Part shown: positions 1,234 to 31,646 of the stretch, one piece after another
How the letters are laid out: every line of letters begins with the position of its first letter
Numbering within the stretch: the first letter of the stretch is position 1
Source: Takakia lepidozioides
Lineage: Eukaryota > Plantae > Bryophyta
Reading direction: 5' to 3'
Length of the DNA: 64,000 nucleotides
NCBI GenBank assembly: GCA_030704615.1
Contig: CM060734.1
Span: 45,260,001 to 45,324,000, forward strand
Notes under the pieces: model-generated
What the model was told of the DNA's origin: nothing
The model's input: the letters and a program-made list of their open reading frames with translations, nothing else
Database searches by the model: none
Program-made: the position numbers and the translations under genes

Positions 1234-2290
1234 GGGGCTGTGACGGGCTGTGCGGGGCTGTAACAGGCTGTGCCCAGTGGCCTGTGGGGCTGTGGCGGGC
1301 TGTGCCCTGTGGCCTGTGGGGCTGTGACGGGCTGTAACAGGCTGTGGCGAGCTGTGACGGGCTGTGCGGGGCTGTGACAGGCTGTGCCCAATGGCCTGTG
1401 GGGCTGTGACGGGCTGTGCCCAGTGGCCTGTGGGGCTGTGACGGGCTGTGAGGGGCTGTGACAGGCTGTGCCCATGGCCTTTGGGGCTGTGATGGGCTGT
1501 GAGGGGCTGTGACAGGCCGTGCTTGAGGCCTTTGAGGCTGTGAGGGGCTGTAAGGGGCTGTGACAGGCCGTGCCTGAGGCCTTTGGGTCTGTGACGGGCT
1601 GTGAGGGGCTGTGACAGGCCGTGCCCGAGGCCTTTGGGACTGTGACGGGCTGTGAGGGGCTGTGTCAGGCCGTGCCTAAGGCCTGTGGGGCTGTGACGGG
1701 CTGTGAGGGGCTGTGACAGGCTGTGCCCAGTTGGCTTGTGGGGCTGTGACGGGCTGTGAGGGGCTGTGACAGGCCGTGCCTGAGGCCTTTGGGGCTGTGA
1801 CGGGCTGTGAGGGGCTGTGACAGGCCATGCTTGAGGCCTTTGGGGCTGTGAGGGGCTGTGTCGGGCTGCGCCGGTGGCCTTCAGGGCTGTGAGGGGCTGT
1901 GCCGGGCTGCGCCGGTGGCCTTCGGGGCTGTGACGGTTGTGAGGGCCTGTGCCGGTGGCCTTCGGGGTTGTGACGGGCTGTGAGAGCCTGTGACGGCCTA
2001 TGCCGATGGCCTTGGGGCTGTGATGGGCTGTGAGGGGCTGTGACAGGCCGTGCCTGAGGCCTTTGGGGCTGTGACGGGCTGTGAGGGGCTGTGACAGGCC
2101 GTGCTTGAGGCCTTTGGGGCTGTGACGGGCTGTGAGGGGCTGTGTCAGGCCGTGCCTGAGGCCTGTGGGGCTGTGACGGGCTGTGACAGGCTGTGGCGAG
2201 CTGTGACGGGCTATGAGGGGCTGTGACAGGCTGTGCCCAGTGGCCTGTGGGACTGTGACGGTTGTGACCAGTGAGCTGTGTGGGCTTGTG
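1234..2290 (+). repeat. G-rich minisatellite: 10-bp (C/G)GGGCTGTGA units in ~39-51 bp higher-order repeats
   Basis: Directly visible. The 51-bp unit gives a 17-aa repeat (HGLSQPLTARHSPKGLR) in antisense ORF 1174-2373. Confidence 0.95.
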
Positions 2291-3005
2291 ATGGTCTGTG
2301 GTGGCCCGTGTTGATCTGTGGACGGCCTGTGCTGACTCGTGGAGGCACTGGTGGACTGCCTAAGGACTGGCATGTGGTCTGGAAGGCCAAATTTTGAAGC
2401 TCGTGGAGGGCGGTTTGAGGAGTATCTTCATGATATTCCCATGGTCATGCAAGTGAGGGAAGAGAGGAGAGGAAGAGTGTTGGGATGAGGGCATGTTGGG
2501 GTTAGGCATTGCTTTAGCTTCTCTTCCTCGTAGTTTCCACCCTCTCATTAGGCCAAGACCTTTCCGTAGGTGGAGGCAAGAGTCAGTCCGGGTTTGGGCT
2601 GGGGTGTCCTTGCAGGAGCAACACCGTGGAGTTGTTTTTGGTGTGGGGGAGTTGTCGTTCTGATTTCTTGTGTTTGGATCTCCTCCATACCTGCATGCTT
2701 GACTGTGCGCCATGCTAGTTTTGTGTGGGCGCTTGTTTTTATAGGTGATTGGTCCGGATTTGATCACCGGCCAGTCCTAGAGCATGATGTCGATGGTGAG
2801 GCTGGGGTGATGACCAGCCAGACCATCATTGTTTCTCCTGTGGTGAGGTTGGAGGTGATGACCAGCCAACCATAGGAGTGCTTGCGGTGGATGCAGGTAC
2901 AGGTGTAGGCTATGTTATGAACTTAGTATTCCAAACCATAAGCCGCAACAGGTTCTCTACCCGGTTACCTTGTGGAGAGGGGGTTAGGGATATGTTCATG
3001 ACCGG

Positions 3006-4250
3006 TTGAGTGTCAACACGGAGGTGCCACTAGTTGCTGGGGACAGTGCCGGTTTGAGCACTAGCGATACTAGTGGGTACACGAGACGAGGTGTGCGGTT
3101 TAGGCCACCTTCACCTCCTGTGTCTTCCACGGAAGGTTCTGATTCGGATTGTGAATCAGGAGGACTCATACCGGCGGTGCAAGTTGTTTCTTTGCCATTG
3201 TTGTGGGACACAATGGAGGAGATGTATGGAGCTACCAAGGGGCCACGAAGGTACTCTGGGGCAGTGGGCACCATCGAGTTGGATGATTTTATCCAAGAGT
3301 TTGATAGTTGGTGTGATTTGCAGCAAATGCGCAATCCACAACTATTTACGCCGTTCATGGCATGGAAAGGGCTGTTTCAGCACCTTGAAGGGCCGCCTAT
3401 GGATGATTACCATGAGTTCAGGCGGGGGCATGAGGTTGAGATCGAGGAGTGGAGGATGTACTGATCACCCGACTATGTCTCCATCACTAGGGGCACTAGA
3501 GCCACGAGGGCAGTGGCTACACCTGCCGCTGCAAACCGGCAGCTTCAGCAAGTAGCAGTAGAACTAGTGGACTGGTGGTACAGTAGCTACGACGTCCACC
3601 CAAGCCACTACCGCACCAGCACTAGCACCTGTGCCTGCCTTCAACCCTGTTGTGGAGTTCTTCGAAGAGTTGAGAGGGAACTACCAAGGGGTGAGGACAG
3701 AGAAGTTGCGGAGCTTGCAAGAGTTCCAACGAAAGCCAACCGAGAGCTTGAGGGAGGCTTTCACTCGCATGAGGCGCTTGATAAATGTAACCCAAGGGGT
3801 TACGAAGCTCAGGCAGTCCAATTCTGGTATGGGATATTGGACAAGGAGCTGAGGAGAAGGGTGCGGGATGCAACTCTCCTACAAGCGGCCCAACCCACCT
3901 TAGCAAATGTGTTTTTGCTGGCAAAGCGGATAGAGCTCAACATGGTGGAACGAGTGGTCATGGTGGGATTTGCTAAGGAGACACCACGGGGTAGTGGTGC
4001 TCCTAGCCAACCACTACCTCAACGTGCTCAAGGCAACAAGGGGGCTCAGGTGAAGCTCAGGGAATGGCAGAGAGGACCTCAGATGCAGGGGTCTCTCCCT
4101 TCATTTGCTGGCCAACAACGGGCGGAGGTGGTGTGCTGGACATGTGGAGGACCCCATGTCAAGAAGGATTGCCCAGAGGGAGGCAAAGGGTCGGCACATG
4201 CACAGCCTGCACAGTTGCAGTGTGGGCATTGTGGCGTGGGGAGGCAAGCC
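3006..4250 (+). pseudogene. Retrotransposon gag (frameshifted) with CCHC-like zinc knuckle
   Basis: Gag-like blocks (ELDDFIQEFDSW; LQEFQRKPTESLREAFTRM; AVQFWYGILDKELRRRV) split over ORFs 3006-3464, 3631-3852 and 3513-4379; knuckle CWTCGGPHVKKDC at ~4134. Confidence 0.75.
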
Positions 4251-4699: not shown

Positions 4700-5100
4700 C
4701 CTGGAGTTGTTATGTTAGACAACCAGGATGGCATTTTCTGTTTGAGTGGACCGGCAGGCAAGAGGTACCGGCCACTGCGGGTCTTGTTGGACTCGGGAGC
4801 TCAGCCATTGATGCTGTGCAGAGCTGCTATTGCAGGCTTGGGCCTCACGGAGGCGGATATGGAGCCTTGTCCTTTCCAGATACAGACGTCTCTGGGAGGA
4901 TCGGAGCAGGCTCGGGGCATGACACGGCGTGAGTTGGCTATCAGACTACGGCCGGATCACCCTACAGATGGCTCAGTGATGCGAGCCAAGGCCATTGTGA
5001 CAGACGCAGTCTCATACGATGTCCTGGTTGGTGGGGCAGTGTTGTACCACATGGGCTTCACCCTGGATTTTTGGGAGGAGTCAGCTTCCTATAGGCCTGC
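4700..5100 (+). pseudogene. Retropepsin aspartic protease domain of pol
   Basis: VLLDSGAQP (Asp codon 4790-4792) and downstream YDVLVG motif in ORF 4064-5962. Confidence 0.85.
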
Positions 5101-5509: not shown

Positions 5510-6480
5510 AAGGCATTTGTCTTCTGGACTTGTTTGGCGGGATCAGCACCGGATTGGCTGCTGTGTTACAAAGCAGGTGTACGAGTTCGGCGTTACCTGT
5601 ATGTGGAGAGGGATGAGACTGCACGACGCGTTTCACTTCGCCATGTTGCTCAGTTGGTGCAGCGGTACCCTGAGTTGTTGTCGGTGTCTACAATTCGTGG
5701 ATATCAGCAGGCCTTGCCAGCAGACATTTCGTTGCTGGGGGCGCAGGATTTGGAGCGGGTTGGCTCCATTGATCTGGTAGTGGCAGGTTGGCCCTGCCAA
5801 GGGCATTCATCAGCCGGGCATGGCAATGGATTGCGAGACTCGAGGTCGGGTCTGTTTTGGGAGATGGTGCGGGTTTTGCGCCACTTGCAGCTTCATCAAG
5901 CTGTATCTCCAGCATACATCTTGGAGAATGTGCCACTGATGGGCATTCTCGGGCCAGGGTGATGGCCAATGTGCATCAAGTCCGGTCGTGGCTTGGGTCA
6001 GCAGTGTTGCTAAATGCAGCTACAGTGGGGTCACGGGCTCATCGTCCACGGCTATGGTGGACTAACTTGATGCCACCCGCACTGCTCAAGCGTGCATTTG
6101 ATGGGGTGCAGCGGCCAGCACATCTCACAGTGGATAACATTCTGGACACAGGGAGGCAGTCTCAGCGTGTGAGACACGATGACCGTTCGCCTTTGGCAAT
6201 GGTCAACAAGGTGGGTCAACCACGAGCAGCATTACCTACACTGCTCAGCTTCCCACGATCGCATGCTTTCCGGGATAGTGGACCTGGCCTCCTGTGGGAT
6301 GCTCAGTTGCAGCAGTTAGTGGAGCCTAATGCTGACGAGCGTGAGCGGGCAATGGGTTTTACCACTGGTACCACGACGGTGTCGTCTCTTTCTGAGGCAT
6401 CACGTCGTCAAGTGTTGGGGCAAGCAATGGATCTCAATTGCTTGACCTGGATTATTAGCTTGGCTCTGGCTGAGCAACGC
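5510..6480 (+). pseudogene. C5 cytosine DNA methyltransferase domain (DNMT3-like) embedded in Gypsy pol; 2 frameshifts
   Basis: Linear motif order: I LLDLFGGIS (ORF 5332-5616); II YVERD, III ADI, IV AGWPCQG, VI ILENV (ORF 4064-5962); VIII AHRPRLWWTN, IX ERERAMGF, X RRQVLGQAM (ORF 5788-6762). Confidence 0.9.
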
Positions 6481-6899
6481 AGAGTGCGGAGTACACTTCC
6501 CTCAATGGTCTCTCTGCCTACCGAGATGGTACAAGCAGTGAGTGGGGGCGAGCATGTGAGGACCACGGGGTGCATGCATCCATGGCACACGTGGGAGGTG
6601 CTCGAGGTTCAGAGGGAGTTGGCAGCCAAGGCGGCTGTGATGGATGAGGTTGGGGATTCTTCTCGGGTTGAGGAGATCCTCAAGGATGAGATGATGGGGC
6701 AGGATGAGGCCTTGTCATTGACTGAGCAGGCAGGGAGTACTGCTCAAGAGGTTGCAACATAGCAACCACTGGACGCGTCCTCTACCTCTAAGCCCACTGG
6801 ACTTAAGGTTGCAGTTACGGAGGACAATTGGGAGCCTGACATTGGACCCATTGTCACCGGAGGAGAGAGACGACGTATACGGCGGTTCCTGAGGGCTTA

Positions 6900-8250
6900 T
6901 AGGAATTGCTTTGCCTTCAGTTTGAAGGACTTGGGAGCACTGAAGGGTCAAGAGATCCGTATTGAGTTGGCCACTGATACGCCAATCTTTCGGAGACCCT
7001 ATAGATACAGTGACATGGAGAGGTCTTTGATTCAGATGAGGACTCAAGATCTCTGGGAGGCAGGTTTGGTGGAGCTCTCTGGTGGAGAGTATGCTTCAGC
7101 CACAGTGATGCCAGCCAAGAAGGATGTCTATGGCAATTGGACGGAGAGACGTATGTACGGTGATTACCGGCCTGTAAATCGTCAGACCAAGTCCGATAAG
7201 TATGCCATGCCAACACCAGAGGAGATCTTTGATGCCATCGGGCATGCTAAGGCCTTTAGCACTTTGGATTTACGATCCGGATATGAATCAAGGAGGCGGA
7301 CAAGCAGAAGACGACATTCTGGGGGATCAATGAGCACGGCAAGGATTGCCTATATCAATGGCGGTTCTTACCATTTGGGCTTAAGAATGCGCTTGCAAAG
7401 TTTCAGAGAGTCATGGATAGGATTCTAGCAGGGGTGGACTTTGCTCGGTGCTACATAGATGATATCATCATCTTTAGTGTTACGATGGAGGAGCATGAGA
7501 GACACCTTCAGGTGGTATTGGAGCGCTTGAGAGCGCACGGATTGAAGTTGCATCCGGGAAGTGCAAGTTTTTCAACAACCAGATTGAGTATCTGGGTCAC
7601 ATGATATATCCTGGAGGATTGGGGGTACAGCAGACTAAGGTAGAGGCCATTGCACAAATTCCACGCCCCACAGATGTGAGCCGAGTTCGAGCTTTCATGG
7701 GGTTGGCAAACTATTATAGACGGTTTGTCAAGGGATTTAGTACCATTGCAAAGGCTCTAACCAAGCTGACCAAGGTGGACCAGGAGTGGCAGTGGGAAGA
7801 TAAGTAGGAACGAGCTTTTCAAGAGCTCAAGGCGAGGTTGACCTCGGCGCCTATCTTGAGACGACCTATCAGGGGGCGTCCCTTTCAGCTGCATACGGAT
7901 TGGAGCATGCTGGGGCTTGGAGCGGTGCTCACACAGGTGGATGATGAGGGAAGAGAGTTCGTAGTGGCTTACGCTAGCCGCTCGAACAACGTTGTAGAGG
8001 CTAAGTACAGCTCATATGAGGGAGAGTGCTTAGCTGCAGTGTGGGCCGTGGCACACTTCAGGTGCTATCTATACGGCAATCTTTTCACCCTTGTCACGGA
8101 TCACCAGCCACTCAAGTGGTTGATGGAGTCAGACAAGCTTACGGGGAAGCTTGCACGGTGGGCACTTATACTCCAGAAGTATGACTTTCAGGTTGTGCAT
8201 CGACCGGGTTTGATCAATCGGGATGCGGATGGATTGAGTCGCAATCCATG
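6900..8250 (+). pseudogene. Reverse transcriptase and RNase H of Gypsy pol (frameshifted)
   Basis: PIFRRPYR, RMYGDYRPVN, FSTLDLRSGY, YIDDIIIFS, FMGLANYYRRFV, TSAPIL, FQLHTDWS, YSSYEGECLA, TDHQPL, ADGLSR. Confidence 0.95.
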
Positions 8251-8599: not shown

Positions 8600-9700
8600 A
8601 TTGTGCCTCACCCCACACAGCGTGCACGGTTAGTGCGGCATGCCCATGAGGAGTTGGGGCATTTTGGAGTGCGACGCACTCACAGTTTACTGCAGGGGCA
8701 GTATTGGTGGCGTGGTATGCATACAGAGGTGCAACAATTCGTGGCTAGGTGCATGGTGTGTGACAGGATGCGTGCTTCATTCAACGCCCCTACACCACAG
8801 TTGCATCCTTTACCAATCATGGGATTGGGCTACAGGTGGAGTCTTGACTTCGCAGGACCGTTGCCACTGACTATGCGCCACCACAGATATGTGTTGGTGA
8901 TGGTGGAGCACTTCTCCAAGTGGATTGAGTTGGTTCCATTGCCTGACAAGGCTAGTGAGGGGGCTGCGTATGCATTCTTGGATCGTGTGCTTAGCCGATT
9001 TGGTGCTCCAGCTGAGGTACTCACGGACCAAGGGAGAGAGTTTTTGGAGGAGTTTCAGGCTTTGTGTGATAAAGCCTTGATAGACCACCGCACCACTTCT
9101 CGGGATCATCCTGAGGCCGATGGCTTAGCAGAGAGAGTTGTTCAGACGGTGAAGAGGGGTTTGCGCAAGTATGGCTTGCAGAAGGGACACCTAGGAGATT
9201 GGGATCTTCAGGTTCCTTGGTTAGCCATGGGCTACAGGTTCAGCAAACAAGCATCACTTGCCTCCTTCTCACCATATTTCCTTCTCTTTGGCCGAGAGCC
9301 GGATTTGCCTGCAACCATTCGTAGGGACACTGCTTAAGTCCTTAACCTTGACGATCCCGACGTGTGGGTACGTGCATGTGATCAGCGTGCAGAGTTGTTC
9401 AAGAAAGTGATGCCCATGGCTTTTGAGAACCTTGCCATTGCACAACACCGTGATACGTTGAGGTATGCCACTATACGTGGTGGAGGATATCGTCCTGGGG
9501 TTCGGAGGTTTAGCCCTGGTGACTATGTTTATTTGCAGCAGACTGCTCCTACGACTCTGGATGTTCCTGCAGGGCGTGTTATTCTGAGGGTTCGAGAGGT
9601 GTTGCCCTCAGGGGTCCTGATCTTGGAGGGTTAGGATGGCATGACTTGGAAGGACCATGTGCGTAATTGTGCGCCATGTCACCTTCCCAATGTCGATGGC
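8600..9700 (+). pseudogene. DDE integrase of Gypsy pol
   Basis: H-x4-H...C-x2-C zinc motif (HEELGH...CMVC), SLDFAGP, TDQGREF, DGLAERVV, SPYFLLFGREP. In-frame stops at 9335 and 9632. Confidence 0.95.
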
Positions 9701-9735
9701 ACCCAAACTTGGCAGTGGTACATGCAGGTTTGAGG

Positions 9736-9879
9736 TGCATGCTCTGTGGGTCTGCCAAAGGGGCAGCCACCATGCTGGTGTGTGATCGATGCTCAAGGGG
9801 TTGGCATATGGGATGCTTGGCACCACCTCTTGAGAAGGTTCCTGACGGAGATTGGTTGTGTCCACACTGCTTGGAATAG
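9736..9879 (+). pseudogene. PHD finger (C4HC3) at C-terminus of integrase
   Basis: CMLC...MLVCDRC...WHMGCLAPPLEKVPDGDWLCPHC in ORF 9667-9879. Confidence 0.9.
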
Positions 9880-10139
9880 TGGCAGTGGACATGACTGGAG
9901 GCAGCTAACAAGACATGGGAGGCCAAGCTCATAGAAGTCAATACATGAGATCCCAAGCTCAAGTTCACAGGTTGCAAGACGGCGACTAACGATGGGGCAA
10001 CTCTTGCACCCGGCCTCTTGATCTATCGAGTTTGAGTGTAGTAGGGATAGTGGTGGAGGACTTAGTGAGGCTATGGTCACTATCACATCTTGTGGCTACC
10101 TGGACTTAGAGGGACCTAAGCACCAGCTAGGGGGGCGAT

Positions 10140-10832
10140 TGTGTGGACTAATGACTGCCATAGTGGCAGCCTAGTGACTGACTAGTTGTAGCCTAGTGGT
10201 TGGACTAGTGGCTGGACTAGTGGTGGACTAGTGGTATACTAGTGTGTGGTGTGCACATGTGTTGTGTGGTTTTGGACAGCGATGTAGTTGTGTAGCGATA
10301 TGTATGCGCATGACAGCTGTCAAGTTATTTTACCACTAGTGTGAAACTAGCTAGGAAATAGCTAGCTTTTACATATTGACATTTGGGATTGGCCCAAGTG
10401 TCAATCCAGGGGTCAAGGCAGATTTAGGCCCTGGAGTGGTTATCTTCACGGCAAGCGCGGAAGGCTCATCTTTCTCGAGTTGAGCCTCAGCGCGCCTAGC
10501 TATGGCGCCGTAGTATGGATTCCCCATGGCGTGGGGTGCACTTGGCTTGACTTGTATTTGAGTGATAAGGTTATATATGCATGAGTTTATGCTTCAGCTT
10601 TGTGAGCTCGCATGAGCTTGTGCTTGTATTCTTCTTCGTTATCATTGTGTGGACTAGTGACTGCCATAGTGGCAGCCTAGTGACTGACTAGTTGTAGCCT
10701 AGTGGTTGGACTAGTGGCTGGACTAGTGGTGGACTAGTGGTATACTAGTGGTATACTAGTGTGTGGTGTGCACATGTGTTGTGTGGTTTTGGACAGCGAT
10801 GTAGTTGTGTAGCGATATGTATGCGCACGACA
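10140..10832 (+). repeat. 3' LTR region with A-B-A' structure (A 10140-10315, A' 10646-10832)
   Basis: Near-identical ~176/187-bp direct repeats, each TG...CA and rich in ACTAGT. Follows PPT-like AGCTAGGGGGGCGA. TATA-like TTATATAT at ~10571. Confidence 0.8.
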
Positions 10833-11050: not shown

Positions 11051-13188
11051 TTTGGGTTACTTGTTGGAGGTTAACCCTGTAGTGAGGGGCCTTCAAATGC
11101 ATGGCTTCAGAGCTGATGCTGCCCTTCAGATCAAAGATTCTATGTTTGTTGATGACACCTTTATCGTGCTTCAGGATGAGCCTGCGGCCCTGCAAGCAGC
11201 CCAATGCACGATTGACACCTTCTACAAGGTATCGGGTTGAAGGTGAATTGGTCGAAAACCAAGGCTCTTCAGGTGGGGGATATTTCAAAGTCTGGTCTGG
11301 GGGTCTCCCCCGTATGGGGGGCAAACTTGGGTTTGATCTGGCTCAAGGATGGAGAGTCCACCACCCTCTTGGGCCACGTCTTCAGGAGTAATCTCTCGGA
11401 AGACCAACGTCTTGGGCCCACTATAGCCAGGCTGAAGGGGCAACTAACCTTCTAGGGCTCTCGGTTCCTCTCCATTACTGGGAGGGCTGTGGTGGCTAAC
11501 CAAATCCTTTTGGCCGGTACTTGGTATTTCGCCTCTACTTGGAGTCCTAGCTCTAAACATATCCACGAAATCAAAAAGTGTATTAGGAACTTTATTTGGG
11601 GGGCCCATTCGTTGGACTCTAACAAACGCCCCCAATTTTCTTGGATTCAAATCATAATGCCCAAGAAAATGGGTGGCCTCGGTGTCTTGGATCCTGAAAC
11701 CCAGATCAAAGCCCTGTTGGGAAAATGGCTCCCCAGATTCCTGAGTCCAGAACGGGGTTGGTGGAAAGTTATGGTGATAGATTATATTTTCCTCAGTTCA
11801 CCCCTGAATTCCACTCAATGGTCTCCATCTCTGAGATGGATCACTCAAGGTTATTGTCATAAATCCCTTGGCTCCTCCTTTTGGACCTCTATTTGGTTGG
11901 TTTGGGGGAAGTGCCGACCCTTCCTGCGAAAAAGAGAGCCTGCTTCCTTCTGTGAGGTGCTCAGGCAATACCTGTTCCTCAACAAGCAAGTCCCATCAGC
12001 TATGGAGAGGAGCCAAGCCACAAGGTGGGCAGGATGGGATGCAAGGGGGCTCTCACAGGTTAGCCATCTATGGTTCAGTACCCCTATTTCTCTTTCCAGA
12101 ACTCTTGGCACCCAAAGACTCTCTGCCGGCATTGCCTCAGTTCTGCAATCACTTCCAGACTTGTGGAGAGACATGCTCAGGCAGGGCCCATCCTCTCCGT
12201 CTATATATCAGTTGGTGACCACACCCGATCATCATTTTCAAGTGATGTTCATAACGGAAGCCTCACGTGTTAACCTAGTGGGTTTCGCATTCAGTGCCCA
12301 TTCGTATACAGGTGCTTTCTCGTTGCACTCATCCGACTCTATCTCAATCCCAAATGCAAACACCCCACCAGCTAGAATCTGCCACTGGAACTCCAAGCTC
12401 AAAGATTTTAATCCATCCCTTCCATCCAACACGCGGGTTCTACCTTGGTTACGATCAGGAACCTTCATTTGGATTGGAGGCCAGGCCATCCAAATCGATC
12501 CGGCAGAATGACACTGGGAATTTGGGGACAAGATTTGCTCCTTCTTCAATTACACGACCAAGGGTGCCTACAGAGCGATGTTGAAGGCCAAACCTCTAAC
12601 CAAAAAATGGGACGACAGATGGGGCTTATTCCAATTTAGAGAGGAAAACTGGAAGTGCATTTGGGCTCTGATTTGGGAGAAATCCAAACCGGCCAAACTC
12701 GGTGCCTTTCTTTGGCAGATTGCAAATAGGGTTTTGAAGGTTGGGCAATTTCTAAACTTCCAAGAGGCCCTACTCTGCAGATGCTGCCCCATTACATTGC
12801 CTTCTTTTCTGTAAAGGGCCGTCAACAATTTGGCCCTTGGTTTGGTCACTTTACAGGGTTGGACCCCATAGCCCTCCTGCTAAATTACAACCAAACAACC
12901 AAGTCCAAGGTGTCCACATGCCCAGTTTTCGAGGCCCTCCGCTCGGCAACACTGTGGCAACACATAGCACATTAGCTCTCTGCGCTATGGCAAATCTTGC
13001 AACCAATAATAGATGGCTCTACCAAGCTTGCATGCGTAGCCAGGTCTATTTTCTTCTCTGTTATTTGATCGTTGGAATCTCCAACACGGCCTCCGTGTGT
13101 TAAGCCTCACGGCACTTGTAAGGGTTTAATTTTTTCCCTTTTTAATAAATTTTCAGGGCCTCTCAACTCTTTAAAAAAAAAAAAAAAA
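11051..13188 (+). mobile_element. 5'-truncated L1/Tx1-type LINE (RT C-terminus and downstream region), decayed
   Basis: SMFVDDT, VSG-LKVNWSKT, MPKKMGGLGV and FLWQIANR motifs. AATAAA at 13144, A17 tail at 13173-13189. TSD AGTTGCAC at 11043-11050 and 13189-13196. Confidence 0.9.
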
Positions 13189-16265: not shown

Positions 16266-17785
16266 ATGGCGCCAGCAGAGTCGAATGGGAACAATGGGGT
16301 TCTCCCCCAGAGAAGTCCGATCTCCAGGTTCGTAGAACGACCAGCAGGTCCTGCTACAGTTCTGAGTATTGCTACCGCGAACCCTCCCACCATAAATGAT
16401 CAAGCGACCTACACTGACAGAGTCTTCGAAATCTGCAATATCGGTGACGATGAGGAGCTCAAAGGCACGTTCAGACACATGAGTGAGTACCCATCAACGC
16501 TGCGCACCAGAATTCAGCAAAATTAATAGCTAAATTAAGTATGTAGCCTGTAGGGATTTAGAGGGGCCGGGCACATCCATGCACGCTGCAAATTATGCTC
16601 GATACTACTGTCAGGTCTGTTTATATTCATGAACTCGTGAAGAGTTACCGAGCTACAATTGCAGGTTAGTCAAGACATGCGGAATCGCATGTGCAGCTCT
16701 AATTAGCAACTCGATTGGCAACCATCCCTCGAGATACAGTCGGGTGATGATGGTTTTTGTGTGTGCATTGTGCAGTTGATACCTCCTGCATCAAAAAACG
16801 GCACACGTTCCTAAGTGATGAAGTACTGAAAGCCCATCCAGAGCTCTGTACCTACTGGGACACTACTTTGGCGATGCGCTCCGAGATGGCGAACTCAAAA
16901 ATCCCTGAACTTGCCAAGGAGGCAGCGGTTAAAGCAATTGAGGAGTGGGGTCGCCCCTTGACAGAAATTACTCATATGGTTATGGCAACCACGACTATGT
17001 CAGGCATTCCGGGAGCTGACCTCAAAATCGCAAGGATGCTCGACCTCCGCCCAACGGTTCAGCGCGTGTGTATGTACCAGACAGGCTGCTTTGGCGGGGG
17101 CGCCGTCATGCGAGTAGCTAAAGATCTAGCCGAGAGCGCCAAGGGTGCCCGTGTGCTGGTTATTGCTGCGGAAGGGAACACAATCATGAATTTCAGAGCT
17201 CCAACTAAAGATACCATGTTTAAAGTCGATTTCTTTCAGGCTCATGTCACGCTTGGCGATGGCGCGGCTGCACTCATAGTAGGATCTGACCCACTGCCTG
17301 GAGTGGAGCTGCCTCTATTTGAGATGTACAGGTCAACGCAGATGTCGCCGCCCAACACAGAGAGCGCCATGACTGGAACCATCACGGAGGCAGGTCTATT
17401 ACAGCATCTCACACCAGTAGTACCCAAGCTGCTAGCTCAATACTTGCCGGAGTTTCTATCCGAAGGTCGAGACTTAGTTGGTTCCCCTGACTGGACAGAC
17501 ATGTTCTGGGTGGTGCACCCGGGCGCATACAGGATTCTAGAGGTGGTGGCCGAAGTGATGGGCTTACCAAAGGAGAAGTTGCAACCCAGCTGGGACACTC
17601 TCGAAAACTATGGTAACATGTCCAGCCCAACTTGCTTGTTTGTGCTGAATGAGCTGCGGAACCGCTCCAAAAGGCTCGGGGAATCTACCACAGGAGGGGG
17701 TTGCGAATGGGGCGTCCTCCTCGGTCTCGGTCCCGGATTCAACATGGAGTTCACCCTTCTGCGCAGCGTGCCATTCACTTCCTGA
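16266..17785 (+). CDS. Type III polyketide synthase (chalcone synthase superfamily, divergent); exons 16266-16482 and 16776-17785; 408 aa
   Basis: GPATVLSIATANP; catalytic Cys (YQTGCFGG), His (VHPG) and Asn (YGNMSS); GLGPG. Single GT-AG intron at the conserved CHS position; spliced length 1227 nt is in frame. Confidence 0.95.
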
Positions 17786-20459: not shown

Positions 20460-23400
20460 ATGGCAAGAGCTGCAGAGAGTGCAGCCGTGTTGGCGTTACG
20501 GAATGTGATGCAGCGGGTGTTCCAGGTGGCCGAAAGGGCTAATCGCCCTGCCTCACAGGTTGCATTTCTCTGTTAGTCCTATTTGAGCTTCGCGTGATAA
20601 TTTCCTCTCTTTCCTTTGGTCCTTGCTTTCTGTTAATCCTTAATACCTCAATCTGTATACACGGTGGAATTGTGATGATCGTGGTTGTCTTAACCTACAC
20701 GTATGGAATAGTCATGAGGTAACAGTGACATATTTTGAGCTAGGCCACATTCGATCAGAGTGTACTAAGGTTGTCCATCGTTCCTTTTCTCTCTCTTACC
20801 TCACACAATGGGCTGGGAGATTTTTTGGATGGACTGTTAGCAGGTGAGGGTAGTGGCAGTGAGCAAGACAAAACCCGTAGGAATGATCCAGGAGGTGTAT
20901 GAGGCTGGGCATCGTCATTTTGGAGAGAATTATGTTCAAGAGCTTATAGACAAGGCACCTCAGGTGAACTTCTTAATTTCTTCAACCTGACGGTCGTGTG
21001 AAAGCAAAGTAAAAACTGCTAAGCTACGTGCCAGAGAAATATCTATGCCTCGATATGCAGGAGAAGATAGGCACAGTAGTGTCTTGGTAGCAGCCAGCTG
21101 CTAGAAATGGCTTCACACGGGAGACTGAAGTTGCAGGTCTGTCACCCATAATTCAAATTTAATAATATAGTGGAACTTTAACTTGCAATGATGGCTGTGG
21201 GAACTGAAGGTCAGCTCCCCTGAACAACAAATGAAGCGGATGGAAAAGAGTATTGCTGAAAACCACAAGATCTATGGGATTTGATTATACAGTAGAAAAG
21301 TAAGGGCATTATGCATATGGAAAGAGGAGGCATCAAGTCAGTTCATGTGTTGTTGACACTGGATTGTCTTGGCAACAATGTACCCAAAAGCTGCTGGTTA
21401 TGAGTCAAAGTCTTTGGTTTCCTCACTTTTGTCTACTGTTTCATGACATTTCGGGGTTGGTGAAAAGATATCACGAAATTAATGTACAATTCTGGGCTGG
21501 GTGGGGAAGGAGTGCTGGACAGTTGCCTGCAGACATCCAATGGCATTTCATTGGGCATCTTCAAAGCAACAAAGCCAAGGCTTTGATTGGTGTGTGTTAT
21601 GGTGGCCTTACCCCATCCCTACCCATGCATCACTGAAATAAATGATCTATGTACAATTTGTTAGGTTTGTTTCGAGGGAAGCTGAGCAATGGGGCATCCA
21701 ATGGTGGGTAGCAGTTTTGACTGAGGTTGATTATCTGCGGGTGGCCGTTTCTTTTTTCAATTTTCAGGGGGCGTTCCCAATCTCTACATGGTGCAAGGTG
21801 TTGACAGCCCAAAGGTCTGCCAGTCCTTACTGGACCACAGGTGTCTGCTGCTTGGTTATGCCCACTTCAGCTTCTTGGGACTAGTTTTTGTCCCCCTAGT
21901 CACATTATTTTTGAAAGATGACGTGAAGACAGAGTCTCTGGTGTGCATTGCGTAGGGAGAGAGACGATTGCCTCACCCACATGTGGGACAGGGTCTGTCA
22001 ACTACGCCTTTTGTATTGGATTACACAGGGAGGCTCAAACTAGTGTCGAATAGCAGGATTGTAGTCTGTTGCCACAAACAGATATTGAAAGAAAAGAAAA
22101 CAGAATGTACTCATGAGACGTGGTTTGCTGTAGCCTTGTGGCCATATACCCGGAGGGAAAAGAGAGAAGACCAGAAGTCATTATTTCAGTGTCATCCATT
22201 CAGCCAGGGATTTTCTGGTGACATTGCCAAGGCTTTACTTGCAAAACGATGCTTGTAAAGCTTCTCAGCCTTGAATGCTGATTATGCTTGAATTTAGCTT
22301 TGTAAAGCCAGTTTTGAAATTTTCATGGTAAGCAGCTCTCTTGAAAATCTGTAGGTTGCAAGCCATTTAGATCGGGCCGTGGGTGGACTGGGAAGACAGC
22401 CATTGAAAGTCCTGGTGCAGGTTAACACCAGTGGAGAGCAGTGTAAGCTTCATATGCCCTTTTGGTGCTAGTTATCTTCATGTATGGTACTGTTGAACAC
22501 CAACAATCTTTTGGTGAGATTCTGTCTTGGTGCACTTGTCTGATAAAGAAAGACGGTAATGTTTGTTCTGAAACCTGAAGGCGTGAATTGATTCCACACA
22601 GCAAGAGCATTACGCGTGTCAGACTACGAGCTGTAAGAAAGCAAGAGATACACAGTTATACAGTCAAACAGACAACTATCAGTTTCTGTGGAATCTCTTG
22701 CCAATGGCAGGATGGGTTGGGCACAGCCAAGTCAGGAGTGGAGCCATCAGAATGTGTGCAGCTGGCAAAGCATGTAAAAGCATCCCCCAACCTTGAGTTT
22801 TCAGGGCTGATGACCATCGGCATGCTTGACTACACTTCCACGCCCCAAAACTTTGAGGTATGTCTCTACTATCTTGAGCCAAGCATGCTGTGTACAGTGT
22901 TGGAAAACCACTGGCATATGGTTGGGCTAGGGATTGAACCTAGGACCTCCCCCACTCCGGTGGGGTGATCTACCACTGAGCTACCCATCCCTTTCTGTTC
23001 TCAGAGTGCCGTGCAAGGGCTATAGCCTTGACACCTCCAACATACAGGACACTACTGGTATAAGTGGTGCAGTTTCACAGTAGCGATAGATGCCAGCCTT
23101 TCAATCAACATGTTACCTGCAACCAGGGTTGTAGTGTTGACAATGAGATGGATGTCGATACTACATTCTCATGGACAGTAACTGCTTAGGACACTGACCA
23201 TGCATTTGGGGGTTTGCAGACATTAGTAAATTGCAGGAAGGAGGTTTGCAAGGAGCTCCAGATACCAGAAGAACAGTGTGGGCTTTCAATGGGCATGTCA
23301 AGTGATTTTGAGCTTGCGGTACGTCCTTCCCTCTACTTGATATCTCTGTCTGTGCCATGAGCTCTCAGTACCCCTGTGGATGTTATCAAATTTCTCTCTT

Positions 23401-23675
23401 CTCCTTCGTGTGCCCCTCTCTCTTTCTTATTTCATGCTTTCTCTTGTCCCACAAGCTCCTTGAGCTTTCCGTGGATGTCATGGAGAATATTTTATTTCAT
23501 TTCTCCATGACACACAGTGGTTACTTTCTTCTATGGGACGGGGATGCCACAGTCCTTGGTAGACATGTTAGGTGGTATTGCTTGTGCTGGGTGGGTGCAG
23601 ATTGAAATGGGAAGTACAAGTGTACGAGTCGGGTCCACCATCTTTGGACCACGTGAATACCCTGCCAAGAGATAG
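20460..23675 (+). CDS. PLPBP: Pyridoxal phosphate homeostasis protein (YggS/PROSC family); exons 20460-20558, 20844-20963, 21523-21589, 21768-21814, 22355-22442, 22727-22857, 23220-23318, 23601-23675
   Basis: VAVSKTKP (PLP lysine), [52 protein letters not shown]; all introns GT-AG. Confidence 0.95.
22919..22990 (-). repeat. tRNA-derived pseudogene / SINE head in PLPBP intron 6
   Basis: Minus strand GGATGGGTAGCTCAGTGGTAGATCACCCCACCGGAGTGGGGGAGGTCCTAGGTTCAATCCCTAGCCCAACCA: A box, B box and perfect T arm; imperfect acceptor, D and anticodon arms. Confidence 0.7.
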
Positions 23676-23877
23676 TGCTCTCATCTTAAATACGTTACTC
23701 CGTTGGCTCTCTAACTCCTCTTGTGATCCGAAAGCTCTTCAAAGCATCAAACGTGCTTTCACTGTACCCCTTCCTGCTTGCTGAAAACTGTGACCTCTGT
23801 GGGTCTGAATTCTCCTGCTCGTGCTCACATGGAAGTCTCCATCTTGCCCTCTCTCACTCTCTCTCTTTTCTGTAGGG

Positions 23878-24290
23878 GGCCACAGGGCTGTGGCAAACAA
23901 CGTCTTATGAGTACATTCTTTTCTGTAGGCCAGCTCCTATGTTTGCGGATGGGTTTGGTGCAAAAGGGTAGAAGACATTTTCAAGTATATAAATTATAGT
24001 AAGAATTGAGCCTCCTCGATGAAGCTGAACTGGAGGGGGTTGTGTCCAAAGCCATGTCTGATGCCCAAAGACTGTCCGATGACAATGAAGTTAGGCACAA
24101 AACTTGCCTGAGCTTGTTTCCAGTCTGTGACACTGGCGAGGACCTTAAGGATGATTTGGAGGCCTACCTACCCTCGGCACTAGAGAAATTTAAACTCATG
24201 GAGGGAAGCCTACCTTTGAACAATAAACAGATGCCAAGATGAAGAGGAGATTGTAATTACTGCACCTGCATACACTGCTTCATCCATCCA
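23878..24290 (+). mobile_element. Fragments of the same LINE family as 36003-39827
   Basis: ORF 24006-24242 (RLSDDNEVRHKTCLSLFPVCD) matches ORF 36350-36736 (RLSDENEVRQKTSLNLFPVCD); 3'-tail motif at 23878-23920. Confidence 0.8.
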
Positions 24291-25568
24291 CAGTGGATGG
24301 ATGATAGTAAGCCTCCTCAACCTCTAATTTCAGAGCAGCCCTACCGAGCATTCGACGTGTCAGCCCCTGATTGTGTCTGAGCAGGCCGGCCACTAACCGT
24401 GCGGTATGAATTTTGGATGACGATTCGGAAAACGTGGATGAACATCGTTTAAAGCCTGGTTCGCGCGTGCTGAATACCATGTCCTTATTCATCCCCCTCC
24501 CGCCCGCTACAGGACGTGGTAGATTTAGGGGAGGCTGCGAGCCGTGGATCTTCACTAGCACGTCGATTACAGCACGTCGATGCAAGGTACGGTCACGAAG
24601 ACATGCACATTTCGTAGTCATCCACATACAGCGTAGATACGGCGGATGACAGGTCTAGTGAGTGCTAATGAAAGTGTGACACGGTGGCGAGCAGCCTCCC
24701 CTCAGATCTACGACGCGGTCCCAACACATGGCATCCGATTGTTGCATGCGATAAGTAAGGCCCAAGTTGTATGGGCATCCCAAAGAATCGCCCCGAGATC
24801 GAATCACATGAGGGCTGCGTCCATGGAGACATTGTAAGGAAGAGGATGAGGGTCGATAGCATTGTAGCAATTCGACAGGATGTGATTGAATCCTCCAGCC
24901 TCCAGGATCTAAAGAAACAAACAGTTTATTTTGGTGGTGCCCGAAATTACTGACTGTTTTCGAAAGTTTGGGCTCACAAACGGTGGCCATTTGGAAGTGC
25001 AGGTCGTCTCTCTCTCTCAGCGGGACCTCAATCTTCCTTTCCGTTTGGTGAGTGGGATGCATGTAAGTGATGGTTGTTTATGTTGTGAAAAGACGCATGG
25101 AATTTTGGTTGCATTCTACAGTGTTCGCAGCTTCCGACTTCGCTCGGATGGGATTGCTTCCACAATGGGAATGAGCGTGGAATTTGTGGTATGACGGGTT
25201 CAAAAAGCAGTATGATGAAGGAAATCAAAGCGTATCCTGCCCAATATGCCCATTGAGCTTTGCCAGGTAACCCACTGTGTATGAGTATGAAAAGCACTGT
25301 ACGAATATGTGCCTCCCATGTTCACTTCTAGTGTCATTGGATTAAAGACTCTCACTGCACCTTCTTTTGCATAGGTTGTGAAGCTTGAGATTTCCGCAAT
25401 GCAAGCGAAATTTAGAACAGCCAAGTCACATCTAAATGCTTCTTGTCAACAGAAGTTGCAGCTTTCCTACCTTCCTACGATTCCCTTCTGTTCCTCTCCT
25501 AATCAGACTATATGTTGCTACTACTTGACTACTGGAATTCAGTGCAACAAAAGTGAAAACAGGAAACC

Positions 25569-28500
25569 ATGGACAACCACAAGAATATGGGGCTCCCCGC
25601 TTTTGAGTGCCCACCTGGCCTTCCATTCTCAGCCAGCTGCCCATCAGAAATGTACAGAGTCCAAGGCCAGAAAGCCATCATGGGCACCTGTGACCTCTGG
25701 ACAGATGGATTGCTATGTGCATATGAGTTCGTACCAGCACTAAAGAGCAAGTTCAAACTAGGGGGTGTTTTCGGGCAGAAAAGTGGGCCTATGCAAGGAA
25801 AATTTAACGCCGAAGTTACAGTGCAAGAATCACAAAATTTTGAACTCGGGGCACCAGGCCAGGACCACTTTGGCAGGCACTTGGAGGAAAATCCTGTTAG
25901 GAACAGTGAAGATCTGTTGGAAAATACAGAAGAGAGGAATGGACGGTCACCGCATTTGGGGCATGGACACATTGAAGAATTGCGAACAAGACAGGGCAAT
26001 ACACAGGATCTGGATGCTGATTTAGTTCCGGGTCATGCATGGGAGCAAACTAGGAGAAAGGAGAAAGGGAGCCATTGGGTCCCCATTGGTTGGGCTCGAC
26101 TGAGTGAGCTTGTTCAGACTGTACAGGTCAGCGTCTTTTTTCTTTTGCATTTGGGTTGTTTTCCGCAAAATCACGGTTCCTTGTGGAGAGTGTGAAAGAG
26201 TTATTTCAAAGTTTTCCTACTGCTGGATACACCGAAGTGTGCGTATTCGGTGAGCAGAGTTTGCAGGCACAGGGAACCCAAAGGCTCCCTTTTGAGAGAC
26301 ATACAGTCTCATTTCTCTGGCTGTCTAATCGACAGAGTTCGAGTGCAATCTTCACCCTCTATGTCAAGCCAGTGAGGTAAAACCAAAATGATTTTGCTAA
26401 GGATGATAGCTCCGTTTTGGACCTGACAACATGGAGCAAACTGATGTTCATGGAGCTTCTTGTTTTGGTTTTGTTTTCCCTGTGCTGCCCTATAGATGTG
26501 ATTACATACGATCATGACCAACTGTCAACCAAGCTTACCATACTGAACTGCCTCAATTTGCAGGTTGATGCTGAGTGGCAAATAGAGGAGCCACCTTCTG
26601 AGAACGACGATACGCTTAGCGTTGCTGATCTGGCAACCCCTTACTGGCAGTCACGAGCTGGACCAACATGGTGGTGTCATGTGGATGCACGGCACCCACA
26701 TATTCTGGCATGGCTTGCAAATGCAAACTGGCTGCACCCTGCCATCAGTGCTGCCCTTCGTGATGAGAACCGTCTTATCAGTGACCGCATGAAATATCTC
26801 TTTTATGAGGTTCCCTCATCTCTCTTATGATTGCCTACTGCTTTCAAGTTGTGCTAATTGAAGGGATGAGCATGGAGTTCCTATAATCTTCACATTCACA
26901 ACCTGAATGCTCTATGGATGAAACTGGGTGGCCGGGCAGGTACCAGTGCGTGTGGCAGGGGGTCTGCTGTTTGAGCTTCTTGGTCAGTCTGTTGGGGACC
27001 ACAATGAAGATGTGCCAGTAGTCTTACGAGCATGGCAAGCCCAAAATTTCTTAGTAACCTCGATGCATGTCAAGGGATTCATTCGTAACCTCAATGTGCT
27101 TGGGGTTATGGAAGTTCAGGTAAGTTGGATACACATCTCTTTTCAGTGTGGAGAGCTTGAATGGGAATTTGGCTTGTTGCTGTTTCCTTTGATGATGTAA
27201 AAGGTCATGTCAGCAATTTCATAGTTCTTAAAACCAGGGAAAGGATTCTTTGGTGGTAGTACTTGTGAGTTAACTCAGACGAAAATTTTCAGGATCTAGT
27301 TGGTGCAGGTGGAACTGAAGCGCCAAAATCTGTGCACGAAGTTATCGCCCAACTGGCTGGTAGCCTTGCCAGCTGGGATAATCGGTAATTCCACTTCTCT
27401 CTCTCTATCTCTGCACGAGGCTGTCTATGTTAGAGAATCTCTTGAAGAATTGACTTTGGGCTGCTTCTTGAGGGTCCCCCTTTCTTCTGTCCCATAAGCT
27501 CAAGTTTCTTTTCCTTCTTTCTATGTATATATGTATATACATCTCTCTCTCTCCCTCCCACTCCCTCTTATGCTCAGTCTGAATCGGGATGCAGTGGCTA
27601 TTGCCACAAGGCTACTGCAAGCAAAGTCTGAAGAGTCTCTTTCTGTCCCATAAGCTCTTTGGGCTTTCTGTCGACAGTATGAAATTCCTTTCTTTCTCTC
27701 TTTCTCTCGCTTTTATCTCTTCTTCCTGACATTGAATAGTTGTTTGTGGGCTTCTTGTTGGAGGTCCCACATTCGTTCTTTTGTCCCATGAGCTCTTTCA
27801 GCTTTCATTTCATTTCTCTTTTTCTGTGTGTTGTGTTTTTCTTTGTGTTAAATGAACAAGACCCCAGGGTCAGACTTCATTACAGAACCTCTTCACATAA
27901 CACCTTAGCAAAGCTGAGAGAAGCCACAAAGTGAACTAAAGAGGCCAGCATCCCTTCAAAGTCAAAGTAGAAGTCCTTGGAAAACAAAAGAAACCCAAAC
28001 TTCCAGAAGGAACTTGCAGCACAAGCTACCTCCACCGGCCCATCTTGGCACTGGAAGCCGCCCAAGCTTACATTATGAAGGGAACTGGCCTGAAGCTATG
28101 GGGATTGCATCATGACGAGAATCTGTCAAAAGCCTCCAGGATACAAGACCTTGTAGAGGCTTCCTGTGCAGGGTCCACACCTGTCAGGCATATCACACAT
28201 CTTCTCTCTCTTCTCTGTTCCGCTCAAACTGGGCGCGGGGCAATGGCCACAAGGCTACAGCAAACGTCTTATAAGTACATTCTCTCTCTTCTTTCTTATA
28301 AAGTACCGTTTCATTTCATTTCTCTTTTTGAAAACTCTCCAACTCTGAAAATCTTGAGTCTGAGCCTAAAGCCCTGGCCTGTTGGGGTCTAGTTGCTGGG
28401 CTGCTCACACATAGCACGTTGATACTTGTGTGAAGGGATTACTAGAGGATATCTGGAAAACCTGACTAATTGTAGTTATCAAGGTAAGTCGGTCTACTGG

Positions 28501-30221
28501 GGTGAGCACCTCCCTCACACAGGTAGTATCTGTTCCCTTTTGTTCTGCCCAAACTGGGCGCAGGGTCTATGCCTACGGCAAACAATGTTGTATGAATACA
28601 TTCTTCTCTCTCTACTTCTGTCTCCATGTCCGTCATGAGGGCTTTTCAACAGAGCATCTTGTTCCTTACATGAGATCCAGGCAGAATGTCGTTTTAGAGA
28701 TTCCTCATCCCTAGCATAAGCCTTCAGCTACAAGGAACTGGAGTGCTCCTTACGCAGATGGTGCTCTTTGTCTTCACGGAACGTTTGGGGGTCAGATTTC
28801 AATTTGGTGGTCCTACTGTGTGCCATTGGTCCCCCTAGGTCTTCATATTATTGTGATTGTAGGTGATGATCAGGTGCTTGGGGTGCAGACTTTTTCGCAA
28901 AAACTATTTTGGTGCAGCGGATGAAGTTGAACTCAAATTTGTAAACAGGTATGTCAAGTTGCCTCAGAGCTAGATCTCCGATTTGTAACGCTTAGTAGGG
29001 GAGGACTGTTTTCACAAAGGGTTCCTACTCTATCCCTTGTGCTGCATGCGATTAGGCAATAATGTGGCAAGAACACTGCAGGAGAGCAAACGAGGACCTG
29101 ACACTTTTGAGCATCATACTCAATCAGGAGATTCGTCGCCTTGCTACCCAGGTGATTATGTCAACTACGTTGAAAGCTTTGAAAGCTTGCATCTCTACTC
29201 TTATTGGTTTGTTTATATAAGAGCTTCCACTTTCCTGATTCATAGAACATGACAAGTTGCTGTACATAGTCTAACCAGAGCTCCAGCATCTCAATGGAGA
29301 GAGAGAAGTACTACTCGACATTTGCTATGATGCGCATAGATCCGAGGATTAAAACTCCTCAAGCTGATTGGGCATCCAGCCCACCATGGAATGTGACATG
29401 GCTCACTACTAGGGGAAGCTTTGAGCTGTGGGGAGTCTAAGAACGAAAGGAACTGTCATGGGCTTGAATACAGTGGTCCTTGGGCGTTTGTTATTTCATC
29501 CAAGTCTTACCGTGGAAACACAGGTGATAAGAGTAAAATGGTCCCTGCATGCAAGGGAGGAGATTGTGCATGAGCTGTCAACACATTTGAAAGGCAAAGA
29601 TACATTGAGAATTTTGGATCGTGTTCGGCAAAGCACAAGGGATATGTTAGATGAGCAAGAAGGGGCACGAAACCGTCTGTTCACTGTTCAGGACGTGATG
29701 CAAAGTAATGTACGCGCATGGCTGCAGGTACTCTCCCCACCTGTTGTATCCACTCAGCAATCCCTCTATCTTATTTGCTATTTCTCTTCCCTATTCTTCT
29801 TGGTCCCACGTATACTGATTCCACTGATTGTCCTTTGCAGGAAAAGAGTATTAGAGTCCAACATAACCTTGCTGTGATCGGAGGTGGGGGCCTCTTGCTC
29901 TCAGTTTTAGTGGGCCTCTTTGGCATCAATGTGGATGGCATTCCTGGCCAAAAAAATTCACCCTATGCTTTTGCAATCTTCTCAGCGTGTCTAGTGCTCT
30001 TGGGAGTTGCTGTGATTGGTCTTGGAGTGGTGTATCTGGGCATGAAGAAGCCTCCCACTGAAGAACAAGTTACCTCCCGAAAGATAGAGCTACAGGAGTT
30101 TGTGAAAACATTTCAGCGAGCAGCCGAAGCCCATGAGAATGTCAGAAATCTGTCTTCGAATGATGAGGAGGATGTGGCTCTAAATACTAGCCTAGACAGG
30201 GATTACATCCTTATGGCTTAA
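25569..30221 (+). CDS. Plant CorA-like (Mg transporter-like) family membrane protein; exons 25569-26126, 26564-26809, 26940-27119, 27293-27384, 28889-28948, 29082-29151, 29524-29727, 29841-30221
   Basis: Blocks DLWTDGLLCAYEFV, HWVPIGWARLSELVQ, GPTWWCHV, VPVRVAGGLLFELLGQS, NQEIRRLATQVIRVKWSLHAREEI; two C-terminal TM helices with GLFGINVDGIPG (GxN loop); GT-AG introns. Start codon uncertain. Confidence 0.85.
27900..28620 (+). mobile_element. LINE 3' fragments inside intron 4 of the CorA-like gene
   Basis: Two copies of the CAAACTGGGCGC.GGG...AAAC...ATGAGTACA-like tail plus TC run (~28244-28290, ~28555-28612), matching the 3' end of the LINE at 36003-36300. Confidence 0.7.
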
Positions 30222-31646
30222 AGGCATCCTCCCCTTACTTCTAGTGGAAATAAACAACATCATCCTCGCCACATCTGCTTGGCTAGAGGGAGTAAGGCAG
30301 GAGGCAATGCTTGTGGTAGCTTTTGTTGGCCTCATAACATGCCCAGTTGCAAGCTGGGAAGAGAATAAAGGGAGCGTACTCTGACTCCAACTTCTGGGGC
30401 CTCGCCGCTGTTGGTCTAGCTGGTACTGGAGACTTGGAATTTCTATGTTGTGAACATTCAACATTGGTGACATTCCTGGTAACTGCCGCCCATCCAGCAT
30501 GTCTAATAGACAAACTGGGTGCAGGGTTTATTGCCACAAAGCTTCGGAAATTAAGAGTACATTCGATTAGCCAGCACAGAATCCCAGACAATATGCCCAC
30601 TGCATAGTGCAACTTGTCTTCGTCATTGTTGCTCTTTCATGGAAATAAAATGAAAGTGTATCAAGGGCCTCAGAAGTCCCAGACAGAAAGTCATGCAGAT
30701 AAATGGGCAATATTCATTATCATCACCTGCAGGTGTGTACATTTCTAGCAATGAAAGATCTCATTCCCAGAGATCAAAATAAGAACCTTCATGCAGCAAG
30801 CCAAAATCTGTTTCTTTGTAATCTTTTGTTTCTGGAAGCTCTGTAACCCACTAAATCTGTGCTTACTAATGGAGGTTCAACATTACTATTATACAAACTT
30901 GCCACCCAACACTCAAGGGGGAGATGCTGGTACATATAGAGCATCTGGCCATACAACTGAAGAGTGCATCTTGAGACGTGGAAGAAAATGGTGACACCGA
31001 CTACTACATTCAACTTTCTCCCCAATACCTAACAGAGAAGGATCTCATTAATGGTGTACAGCTTAACAGGCTTTCAACTTTCAACCCTGCCCAAATGAGT
31101 TGGATTGTCAATTTGGAACTGAGCAGTGAGTTCCAAGTATCTGGATTCCAAACCCATCAAGTTTGCCTTACATGTGGAGGGCAAGACATTGAGTCCAAGC
31201 CACTCTGCAACACTTACAGGAATGACCAGTGCTACCAGCCTCCATGGAGAAACTTGGAAGCTTGGATTGCAGTCCAAAATGACCTCATCGCGTAAAAAGG
31301 ACCCAATCAATTTGATATGCACACCTTCAGCACCATGGAGGGCCAAGGTGTGCTCCTGGGTCATTCGGGCCAAGAAGCCACTAGTGTTGATCGACAAGGT
31401 CCTCAATGTCTCATTAGCAGTAGCTCAGGACCACTCATATAATAGTGACATGGATTGGGGTGCAGTTCAGATTTGACCAATCCTATCTTCGGCAAAAACC
31501 AGGCAAGAGTCCGTTTTGAAACATGAGATGCACACAAGCACAGATGGCAGCACCTATTAGACTACCAAATGCAGTGCAATCAAAGAGGTACACCTACCTT
31601 GTCCTGAGCATGTTTGCACTGTCAGAATAAGGAGGTCGCAATAACT

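Follow-up and report, generated by a model that had tools for sequence, protein, structure and literature searches.

What might a PHD finger be doing at the very end of a retrotransposon's pol, i.e., at the place where chromoviruses instead carry a chromodomain? The question is raised by a decayed copy of a DNMT-carrying Gypsy retrotransposon of high copy number, the pol of which is closed by such a finger, DNMT referring here to a C5 cytosine methyltransferase. This copy lies in what we term the window, that is, the whole 64,000 nt stretch of DNA analysed (Takakia lepidozioides, GCA_030704615.1, CM060734.1, positions 45,260,001 to 45,324,000, forward strand). The original prediction took the finger to be a possible reader of unmodified histone H3 and, in addition, possibly the reader which the element's own DNMT lacks.

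Profile scans along with the alignments of relatives give the domain order of this element as gag-PR-DNMT-RT-RH-INT-PHD (Table 1). The PR-RT-RH-INT order and the Ty3-like RT and integrase are those of Ty3/Gypsy (Metaviridae), and Ty3 is the top solved-structure match for P0001, which is the closest relative of the window element. The 3' end of the element reads B-A-B, i.e., the split-repeat form of KnitGypsy-Dnmt3. A search of the window for the 5' copy of repeat A found none, that copy lying outside of the window or having been lost. A full A-coding-B-A-B layout is seen in five of the 31 loci examined, four of them distinct as two are one locus (L013, L024, L026, and L037), these being DIRS-like repeats despite a DDE integrase. 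At the inner B/A junction the letters (CA, two bases, TG) look like two element ends brought together. Target duplications, of 4 bases, were readable in three loci only, with L037 showing an exact one and L013 and L024 agreeing at three of four bases.

Table 1. Element features, as positions within the window
Feature	Positions	Strand	Remarks
51-base tandem array	1237..2313	+	probably within the element's 5' leader
Decayed gag	3237..4200	+	weak Retrotrans_gag match below cut-off; CCHC-like knuckle near 4135
Aspartic protease	4715..5074	+	
C5 cytosine methyltransferase, catalytic domain only	5528..6492	+	motifs I, IV (PC), VI (ENV), VIII, X; one frameshift near 5940
In-frame stop, CAR-YYA context, between DNMT and RT frames	6760..6768	+	fixed among family copies, likely leaky
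Reverse transcriptase core	7141..7583	+	two frameshifts, near 7287 and 7550
RNase H	7793..8182	+	contains stop 7805-7807
Integrase zinc finger (H2C2) and DDE core	8612..9286	+	frame ends at stop 9335-9337
Integrase C-terminal region (beta domain and linker)	9338..9735	+	stop at 9632, frame change near 9700
PHD finger (C4HC3) and pol-ending stop	9736..9879	+	Pfam, ligands, structure alignment
PHD: R2-type Asp after third Cys	9784-9786	+	
PHD: Gly at His-2	9799-9801	+	
PHD: A1-pocket Trp	9853-9855	+	
Terminal repeat B, first copy	10138..10316	+	
Terminal repeat A	10319..10643	+	begins TG
Terminal repeat B, second copy	10644..10832	+	ends CA; 3' end of element

Mapped depth, which is no measure of copy number, drops about fifty-fold past 10867, and 26,872 contigs of one sequencing run map onto 2.4 kb of the element. 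The family thus is very abundant in its host. The CpG content of the element, at 0.53 versus 0.54 for the remaining window, is uninformative. Directly after the element is a decayed fragment with a poly(A) end and no Pfam match (11086-13171), which from its motifs we take to be LINE-like. Elsewhere in the window are a chalcone/stilbene synthase-like type III polyketide synthase gene (16751-17785) and a short repeat family, possibly a non-autonomous element, whose copies lie dispersed in both direct and inverted orientation (22092-37362). The polyketide synthase gene, along with the relatives from Coleochaete and Sphagnum named below, would be in keeping with a non-seed land plant as host.

The finger itself is complete. 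Positions 9736-9876 supply all eight zinc ligands of a C4HC3 finger, with a stop directly downstream (9877-9879), and the match to Pfam PF00628 is of 47.9 bits (cut-off 24; E 1.3e-12). A six-frame scan finds no second PHD in the window. A DNMT3-type ADD was also considered as the finger's identity and was rejected, what is present being a single canonical C4HC3 finger, and the matches listed including neither an ADD family nor an ADD structure. Integrase core and PHD are 450 bases apart, with 457 being the commonest value (12 of the 36 loci with both). An intact C4HC3 finger ending pol after integrase thus is what the window holds, as had been claimed, but in this copy the two are not fused: the PHD is out of frame with integrase, with integrase-frame stops at 9335 and 9632 and a change of frame at about 9700-9703. 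That frame break is missing from the contigs of all four sequencing runs compared, and nearly all of the mapped depth differs from the window at 9633, i.e., within the 9632 stop. Frame break and 9632 stop represent the decay of one copy rather than the state of the family.

The position of the finger likewise is as had been proposed, that of a chromovirus chromodomain, in that the finger follows the integrase C-terminal beta domain. That fold assignment is taken from the model of P0001 (pTM 0.38, thus a tentative model), in which a five-strand domain and then a linker of low confidence precede the finger. A fold search with the 1033-residue P0001 model gave only reverse transcriptases among the matches listed, and has no bearing on the PHD. 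As for chromodomains, none was found in the window pieces, in 42 scans of relatives, or in the precomputed domain lists of 120 relatives, and the identity of chromovirus was rejected, there being no chromodomain after integrase. Troyka was rejected as well, the termini here being TG...CA in a plant context versus CG...CG, a 3-base duplication, and animal hosts, as too was Selgy.

Is the finger then a regular part of integrase in the family? Relatives were gathered by searching with the integrase region among proteins of 892-2545 residues only, 120 of the 151 found being used, with the PHD detected by a local profile. PHD and integrase are found in one protein in 100 of these 120 listed relatives, the PHD always lying 134-175 residues after the core. 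At the level of DNA, the PHD is in the integrase frame in 23 of the 36 loci holding both, six of these without a stop. The in-frame fusion for which the original prediction called is therefore the state of the family. The PHD is the C-terminal end of the protein in 37 of the 100 PHD-bearing relatives.

Long tails follow the PHD in other relatives, and 55 of 61 share a module of ~100 residues (P0028, P0099, P0035, P0114, and others). Among such tails, that of P0099 matches the PTM/DIR17 Tudor family above cut-off, with sub-threshold matches in P0028 and P0106. A second module, shared by 28 of 29 longer tails, is weakly like adenine methyltransferases (ESM Atlas 0.82 for a chlorophyte-type tail, scores <0.9 being a lead only), and has motif-like columns, with no canonical adenine methyltransferase catalytic motif in the 29 tails. 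P0106 possesses, in addition, a 658-residue RNase H-integrase gap (residues 628-1286) without DNMT or Pfam match, possibly other cargo.

The DNMT was detected in 74 of the 120 listed relatives, and 60 of those 74 also carry the PHD, bearing out the expected co-occurrence. Most of the remaining 46 records begin just before RT, so that in most of them the presence of a DNMT is unreadable. A survey of DNA, consisting of 81 rows (80 loci plus the window), 47 of them covered on both sides, gives a similar picture, though several loci are one locus in different assemblies and the row counts therefore are not independent: with a family-level integrase score and both sides covered, 28 of 31 rows have PHD and DNMT (window included), two PHD only, and one DNMT only, versus neither domain in 14 of the 16 rows with a low integrase score. 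Locus L005 is an internal deletion. Members of this large family as a rule pair an integrase-PHD with a DNMT.

A tree of 117 proteins and the window, three records with short integrases having been left out, splits by DNMT position at an SH-aLRT of 98. The two domain orders are found on its two sides, i.e., PR-DNMT-RT, where the DNMT precedes RT (13 rows), and RH-DNMT-INT, where it follows RNase H and precedes integrase (59 rows). Named relatives include the streptophytes Coleochaete, Closterium, and Sphagnum and the chlorophytes Monoraphidium and Tetrabaena, the chlorophyte records having the DNMT between RNase H and integrase. Two records, P0137 and P0071, are labelled in public sources as a cyanobacterium and a Minisyncoccia bacterium, and probably are eukaryotic DNA in metagenome bins. 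With ten truncated or degenerate rows set aside, absence of the PHD amounts to two changes on the tree, in P0025 and in one DNMT-keeping branch. As one branch of ten records is without it, the PHD is dispensable.

The DNMT of the window matches PF00145 at E 1.4e-11, its catalytic motifs lying inside of pol, and the catalytic Cys is kept in 62 of 64 family DNMT domains. Motif IV of the family DNMTs often reads EC instead of PC. The C-terminal half matches DNMT3A chains at E about 0.3 only, and the assignment to the Dnmt3 class is putative. Neither ADD nor PWWP families occur in the full-length relatives scanned, and the DNMT noted earlier is indeed present in the window, as a catalytic domain with one frameshift.

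Between DNMT and RT frames there is the stop at 6760-6768, with no variant letter at 6758-6769 in three sequencing runs, positions 6757 and 6770 both varying. An equivalent stop is found 121 codons before RT in four relatives (L001 2686, L006 9962, L025 9962, and L041 1664). What follows the stop is CAA-CC, the window context fitting CAR-YYA and the relatives fitting five of its six letters. A strict search for stop-CARYYA between DNMT and RT matched five of 40 rows, window included, with two of the other four off frame and two, one locus twice, at another position. Other branches of the family are continuous across this boundary. CAR-YYA is a readthrough signal of plant viruses (PMC2194720), and judged by its context the 6760 stop likely is leaky. 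In this subfamily, that is, the DNMT likely would be made upstream of a leaky stop and RT-RH-INT-PHD via readthrough, and given that readthrough context the DNMT likely would be made in excess of INT-PHD.

Might the finger then be serving the DNMT, guiding or licensing a catalytic-only enzyme on K4-unmethylated chromatin and thereby recreating the DNMT3 combination of ADD and catalytic domain within a single polyprotein or particle? The frequent co-occurrence just described would be in keeping with this, as would the single reading frames which hold both domains (P0012, P0014, and P0163), the adjoining of DNMT and PHD-bearing domain in the 59 RH-DNMT-INT rows, the retention of the catalytic Cys, and the absence of ADD and PWWP families from the proteins scanned. 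Co-occurrence, however, follows from shared ancestry, and each domain has been lost without the other, with DNMT but not PHD in P0079, P0081, P0082, P0103, and P0025, and PHD without detectable DNMT in P0026/L073 and P0105. The PHD, furthermore, is at a fixed distance from integrase whereas the DNMT takes two positions, and in the window's subfamily a fixed stop intervenes between DNMT and RT-RH-INT-PHD. The ADD of DNMT3 consists of a GATA-like finger plus an atypical, all-Cys PHD, and the canonical C4HC3 finger seen here has no such likeness. It may be added that cDNA is without nucleosomes. Methylation of cDNA is what de Mendoza et al. favour as the role of the DNMT of a DIRS element (PMC5890265). 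The claim that the PHD, which tracks integrase rather than the DNMT, supplies the DNMT's reader fares poorly, and we see it as quite unlikely.

What may the finger read? PHD fingers which read K4me3 (ING2, BPTF, or TAF3 type) have a cage Trp two residues before the zinc-ligand His. The Gly that had been reported at that position in the window is indeed there, and an aromatic at His-2 is found in none of 100 family fingers, so that the K4me3 cage is absent. Solved-structure matches, the best 60 of 82, are led by CHD4, KDM5A/B PHD1, PHF12, ATXR5, DPF3, and BHC80, and include none of ING, BPTF, TAF3, or ADD. UHRF1 fingers, the K4 dependence of which is weak, are among the solved matches listed. 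In terms of sequence, the finger comes out closest to readers of unmodified H3, with KDM5A/B PHD1 and ATXR5 matching at E of about 3e-13 to 3e-12.

Within KDM5B PHD1, L325, P347, G349, and W351 hold Ala1 of H3, D328 holds Arg2, and D308 the unmethylated Lys4, while mutation of L325, D328, or W351 lowers H3 binding (PMC4225485). Mapping of KDM5B positions onto the window finger via the structure-match alignment yields L, P, G, W, and D at the L325, P347, G349, W351, and D328 positions, i.e., an A1 pocket and R2 aspartate of the KDM5 PHD1/ATXR5 type. The triad of L325, D328, and W351 is intact in 91 of 100 fingers, and without exception in the 11 closest relatives. Fingers of the family differ from those of KDM5B and ATXR5 in that the KDM5B D308, Y310, and E321 and ATXR5 D44 positions are not conserved. 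The D308 position, the K4 acid, is Ala in the window, an Asp or Glu at -5 to -2 before the first Cys is present in 59 of 100 fingers but in only two of the 11 closest, and the second R2 acid, at the ATXR5 D44 position, is Asp in just eight of 100. The finger is under constraint, albeit weaker than that on integrase, pN/pS being 0.32-0.64 for the PHD versus 0.16-0.48 for integrase (window versus 13 loci, uncorrected).

With the A1/R2 pocket kept, the cage absent, and the K4 acid unconserved, binding of the H3 tail by the family finger is likely, and selectivity for K4me0 possible. The idea that the PHD may read unmodified H3 accordingly retains its pocket and its missing cage aromatic, but a missing Trp alone is no proof of K4me0 selectivity, and that part was overstated, the K4-binding acid being absent from the window and from nine of the 11 closest relatives. 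Such an acid nevertheless is not required, as ATXR5 reads Lys4 through main-chain carbonyls only (PMC5499861), so that the family finger might still be K4me0-selective.

The nearest rival to the explanation favoured below takes the absence of the acid at face value. The finger would bind the start of H3, Ala1 and Arg2, whatever the state of K4, and thus be a general nucleosome tether which makes integration more efficient but does no steering from promoters. Conservation of the A1/R2 positions but not of the K4 acid is what this would predict, the UHRF1 fingers are among the matches, and loss of the PHD is tolerated in one branch. Counting against it, besides ATXR5's discriminating of K4 methylation by main-chain atoms alone, is the KDM5B L326 position. 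In KDM5B this residue crowds methylated K4 (PMC4225485), and its equivalent is aliphatic in most family fingers (L in 75, V in eight, and I in seven of 100). A K4-blind tether we hold to be unlikely. Alternatively, the finger could bind a non-histone partner, i.e., a host factor or a protease-released element protein with an H3-like N-terminus, or it could be merely structural. A conserved pocket implies a conserved shape of ligand rather than a particular ligand, and H3 mimicry is known for PHD fingers (PMC8166343), yet the close solved relatives, the best 60 of 82, all are chromatin proteins and the position is that of the chromovirus chromodomain, leaving this reading very unlikely.

The explanation we prefer, and which seems to us rather probable, is that in intact copies the PHD serves to tether integrase to chromatin through the free and unmodified N-terminus of H3. 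Going into that reading are results established above, namely the identity of the domain, its fusion to integrase in the family, the constraint, and the conservation of those residues with which KDM5B and ATXR5 grip Ala1 and Arg2. By this tether explanation, the PHD would stay attached to mature integrase, and the finger would dock the integration complex onto nucleosomes. Given no aromatic cage, K4-trimethylated tails probably would be bound less well, so that fewer insertions would go to active promoters. The DNMT would be a separate module, acting on the element's own cDNA. A broader version has the PHD delivering both integrase and the DNMT3-like enzyme to K4-unmethylated nucleosomes, such that insertions would arrive pre-equipped with their own methylation, a green-lineage-wide counterpart of chromoviruses in which the DNMT3 reader-writer unit has been rebuilt from two captured parts within split-repeat Gypsy elements. 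This version we judge to be improbable.

Published already, as separate parts of this arrangement, are Gypsy polyproteins with a PHD, Gypsy elements with a DNMT, and elements which combine a reader with a DNMT. By description, KnitGypsy-Dnmt3, i.e., the streptophyte Gypsy-DNMT3 elements (PMC5890265), shares with the element here its Gypsy domains, a DNMT in pol (Dnmt3-related in the published element, and putatively so here), a DIRS-type repeat layout (A-coding-B-A-B here), and streptophyte relatives. It differs in that a PHD goes unmentioned in the main text and supplements of that paper, the Fig. 4c of which may show one, and in that the clade found here includes chlorophytes with the RH-DNMT-INT order. 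Gypsy-7a_cRei of Chlamydomonas reinhardtii (PMC9940879, bioRxiv 2022.06.16.496473) also is a green-lineage Gypsy with a PHD in Gag-Pol. Its insertions are intergenic 2.6 times above chance (PMC9940879), and Craig et al. suggest that its PHD plays a role in limiting harmful insertions (PMC9940879, bioRxiv 2022.06.16.496473), though per its authors the bias could be due to selection. A DNMT goes unmentioned for it, and as its legend lists the PHD before INT, Gypsy-7a may be of other architecture, which limits the analogy with regard to targeting.

Chromoviruses (PMC6317226; Kojima 2025, PMC12440569) similarly are Ty3/Gypsy elements in which pol ends with a domain that reads histones, whereas the element here has a PHD rather than a chromodomain, split repeats, and a DNMT. 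The REXdb paper (Neumann et al. 2019, PMC6317226) mentions neither PHD nor methyltransferase. EpiLTRs (bioRxiv 10.64898/2026.05.21.726589) combine a histone reader and a cytosine DNMT in one LTR element. They differ, however, in consisting of a chromodomain, DAM, and a DNMT4-related enzyme, found in Cymbomonas and Euglena, and are described there as distinct from streptophyte Gypsy-DNMT3. More generally, PHDs are widespread retrotransposon modules (PMC6673714; bioRxiv 2021.11.30.470311). For the pairing of integrase-PHD with DNMT in this lineage we found no published text, though a figure, supplementary table, or thesis may show it.

The window copy is dead, its sole interest being that it points to its family. 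Gypsy-DNMT3 elements, described for streptophytes, are by way of this family extended to chlorophytes, with a second domain order. As the family is abundant and has natural branches without PHD or without DNMT, the roles of these modules are testable by comparison. Chromodomains are the model for reader-guided integration, and a targeting role for the PHD is plausible. If true, then a second old and successful lineage would possess a PHD at that same place, that is, the strategy would have arisen twice, with different marks.
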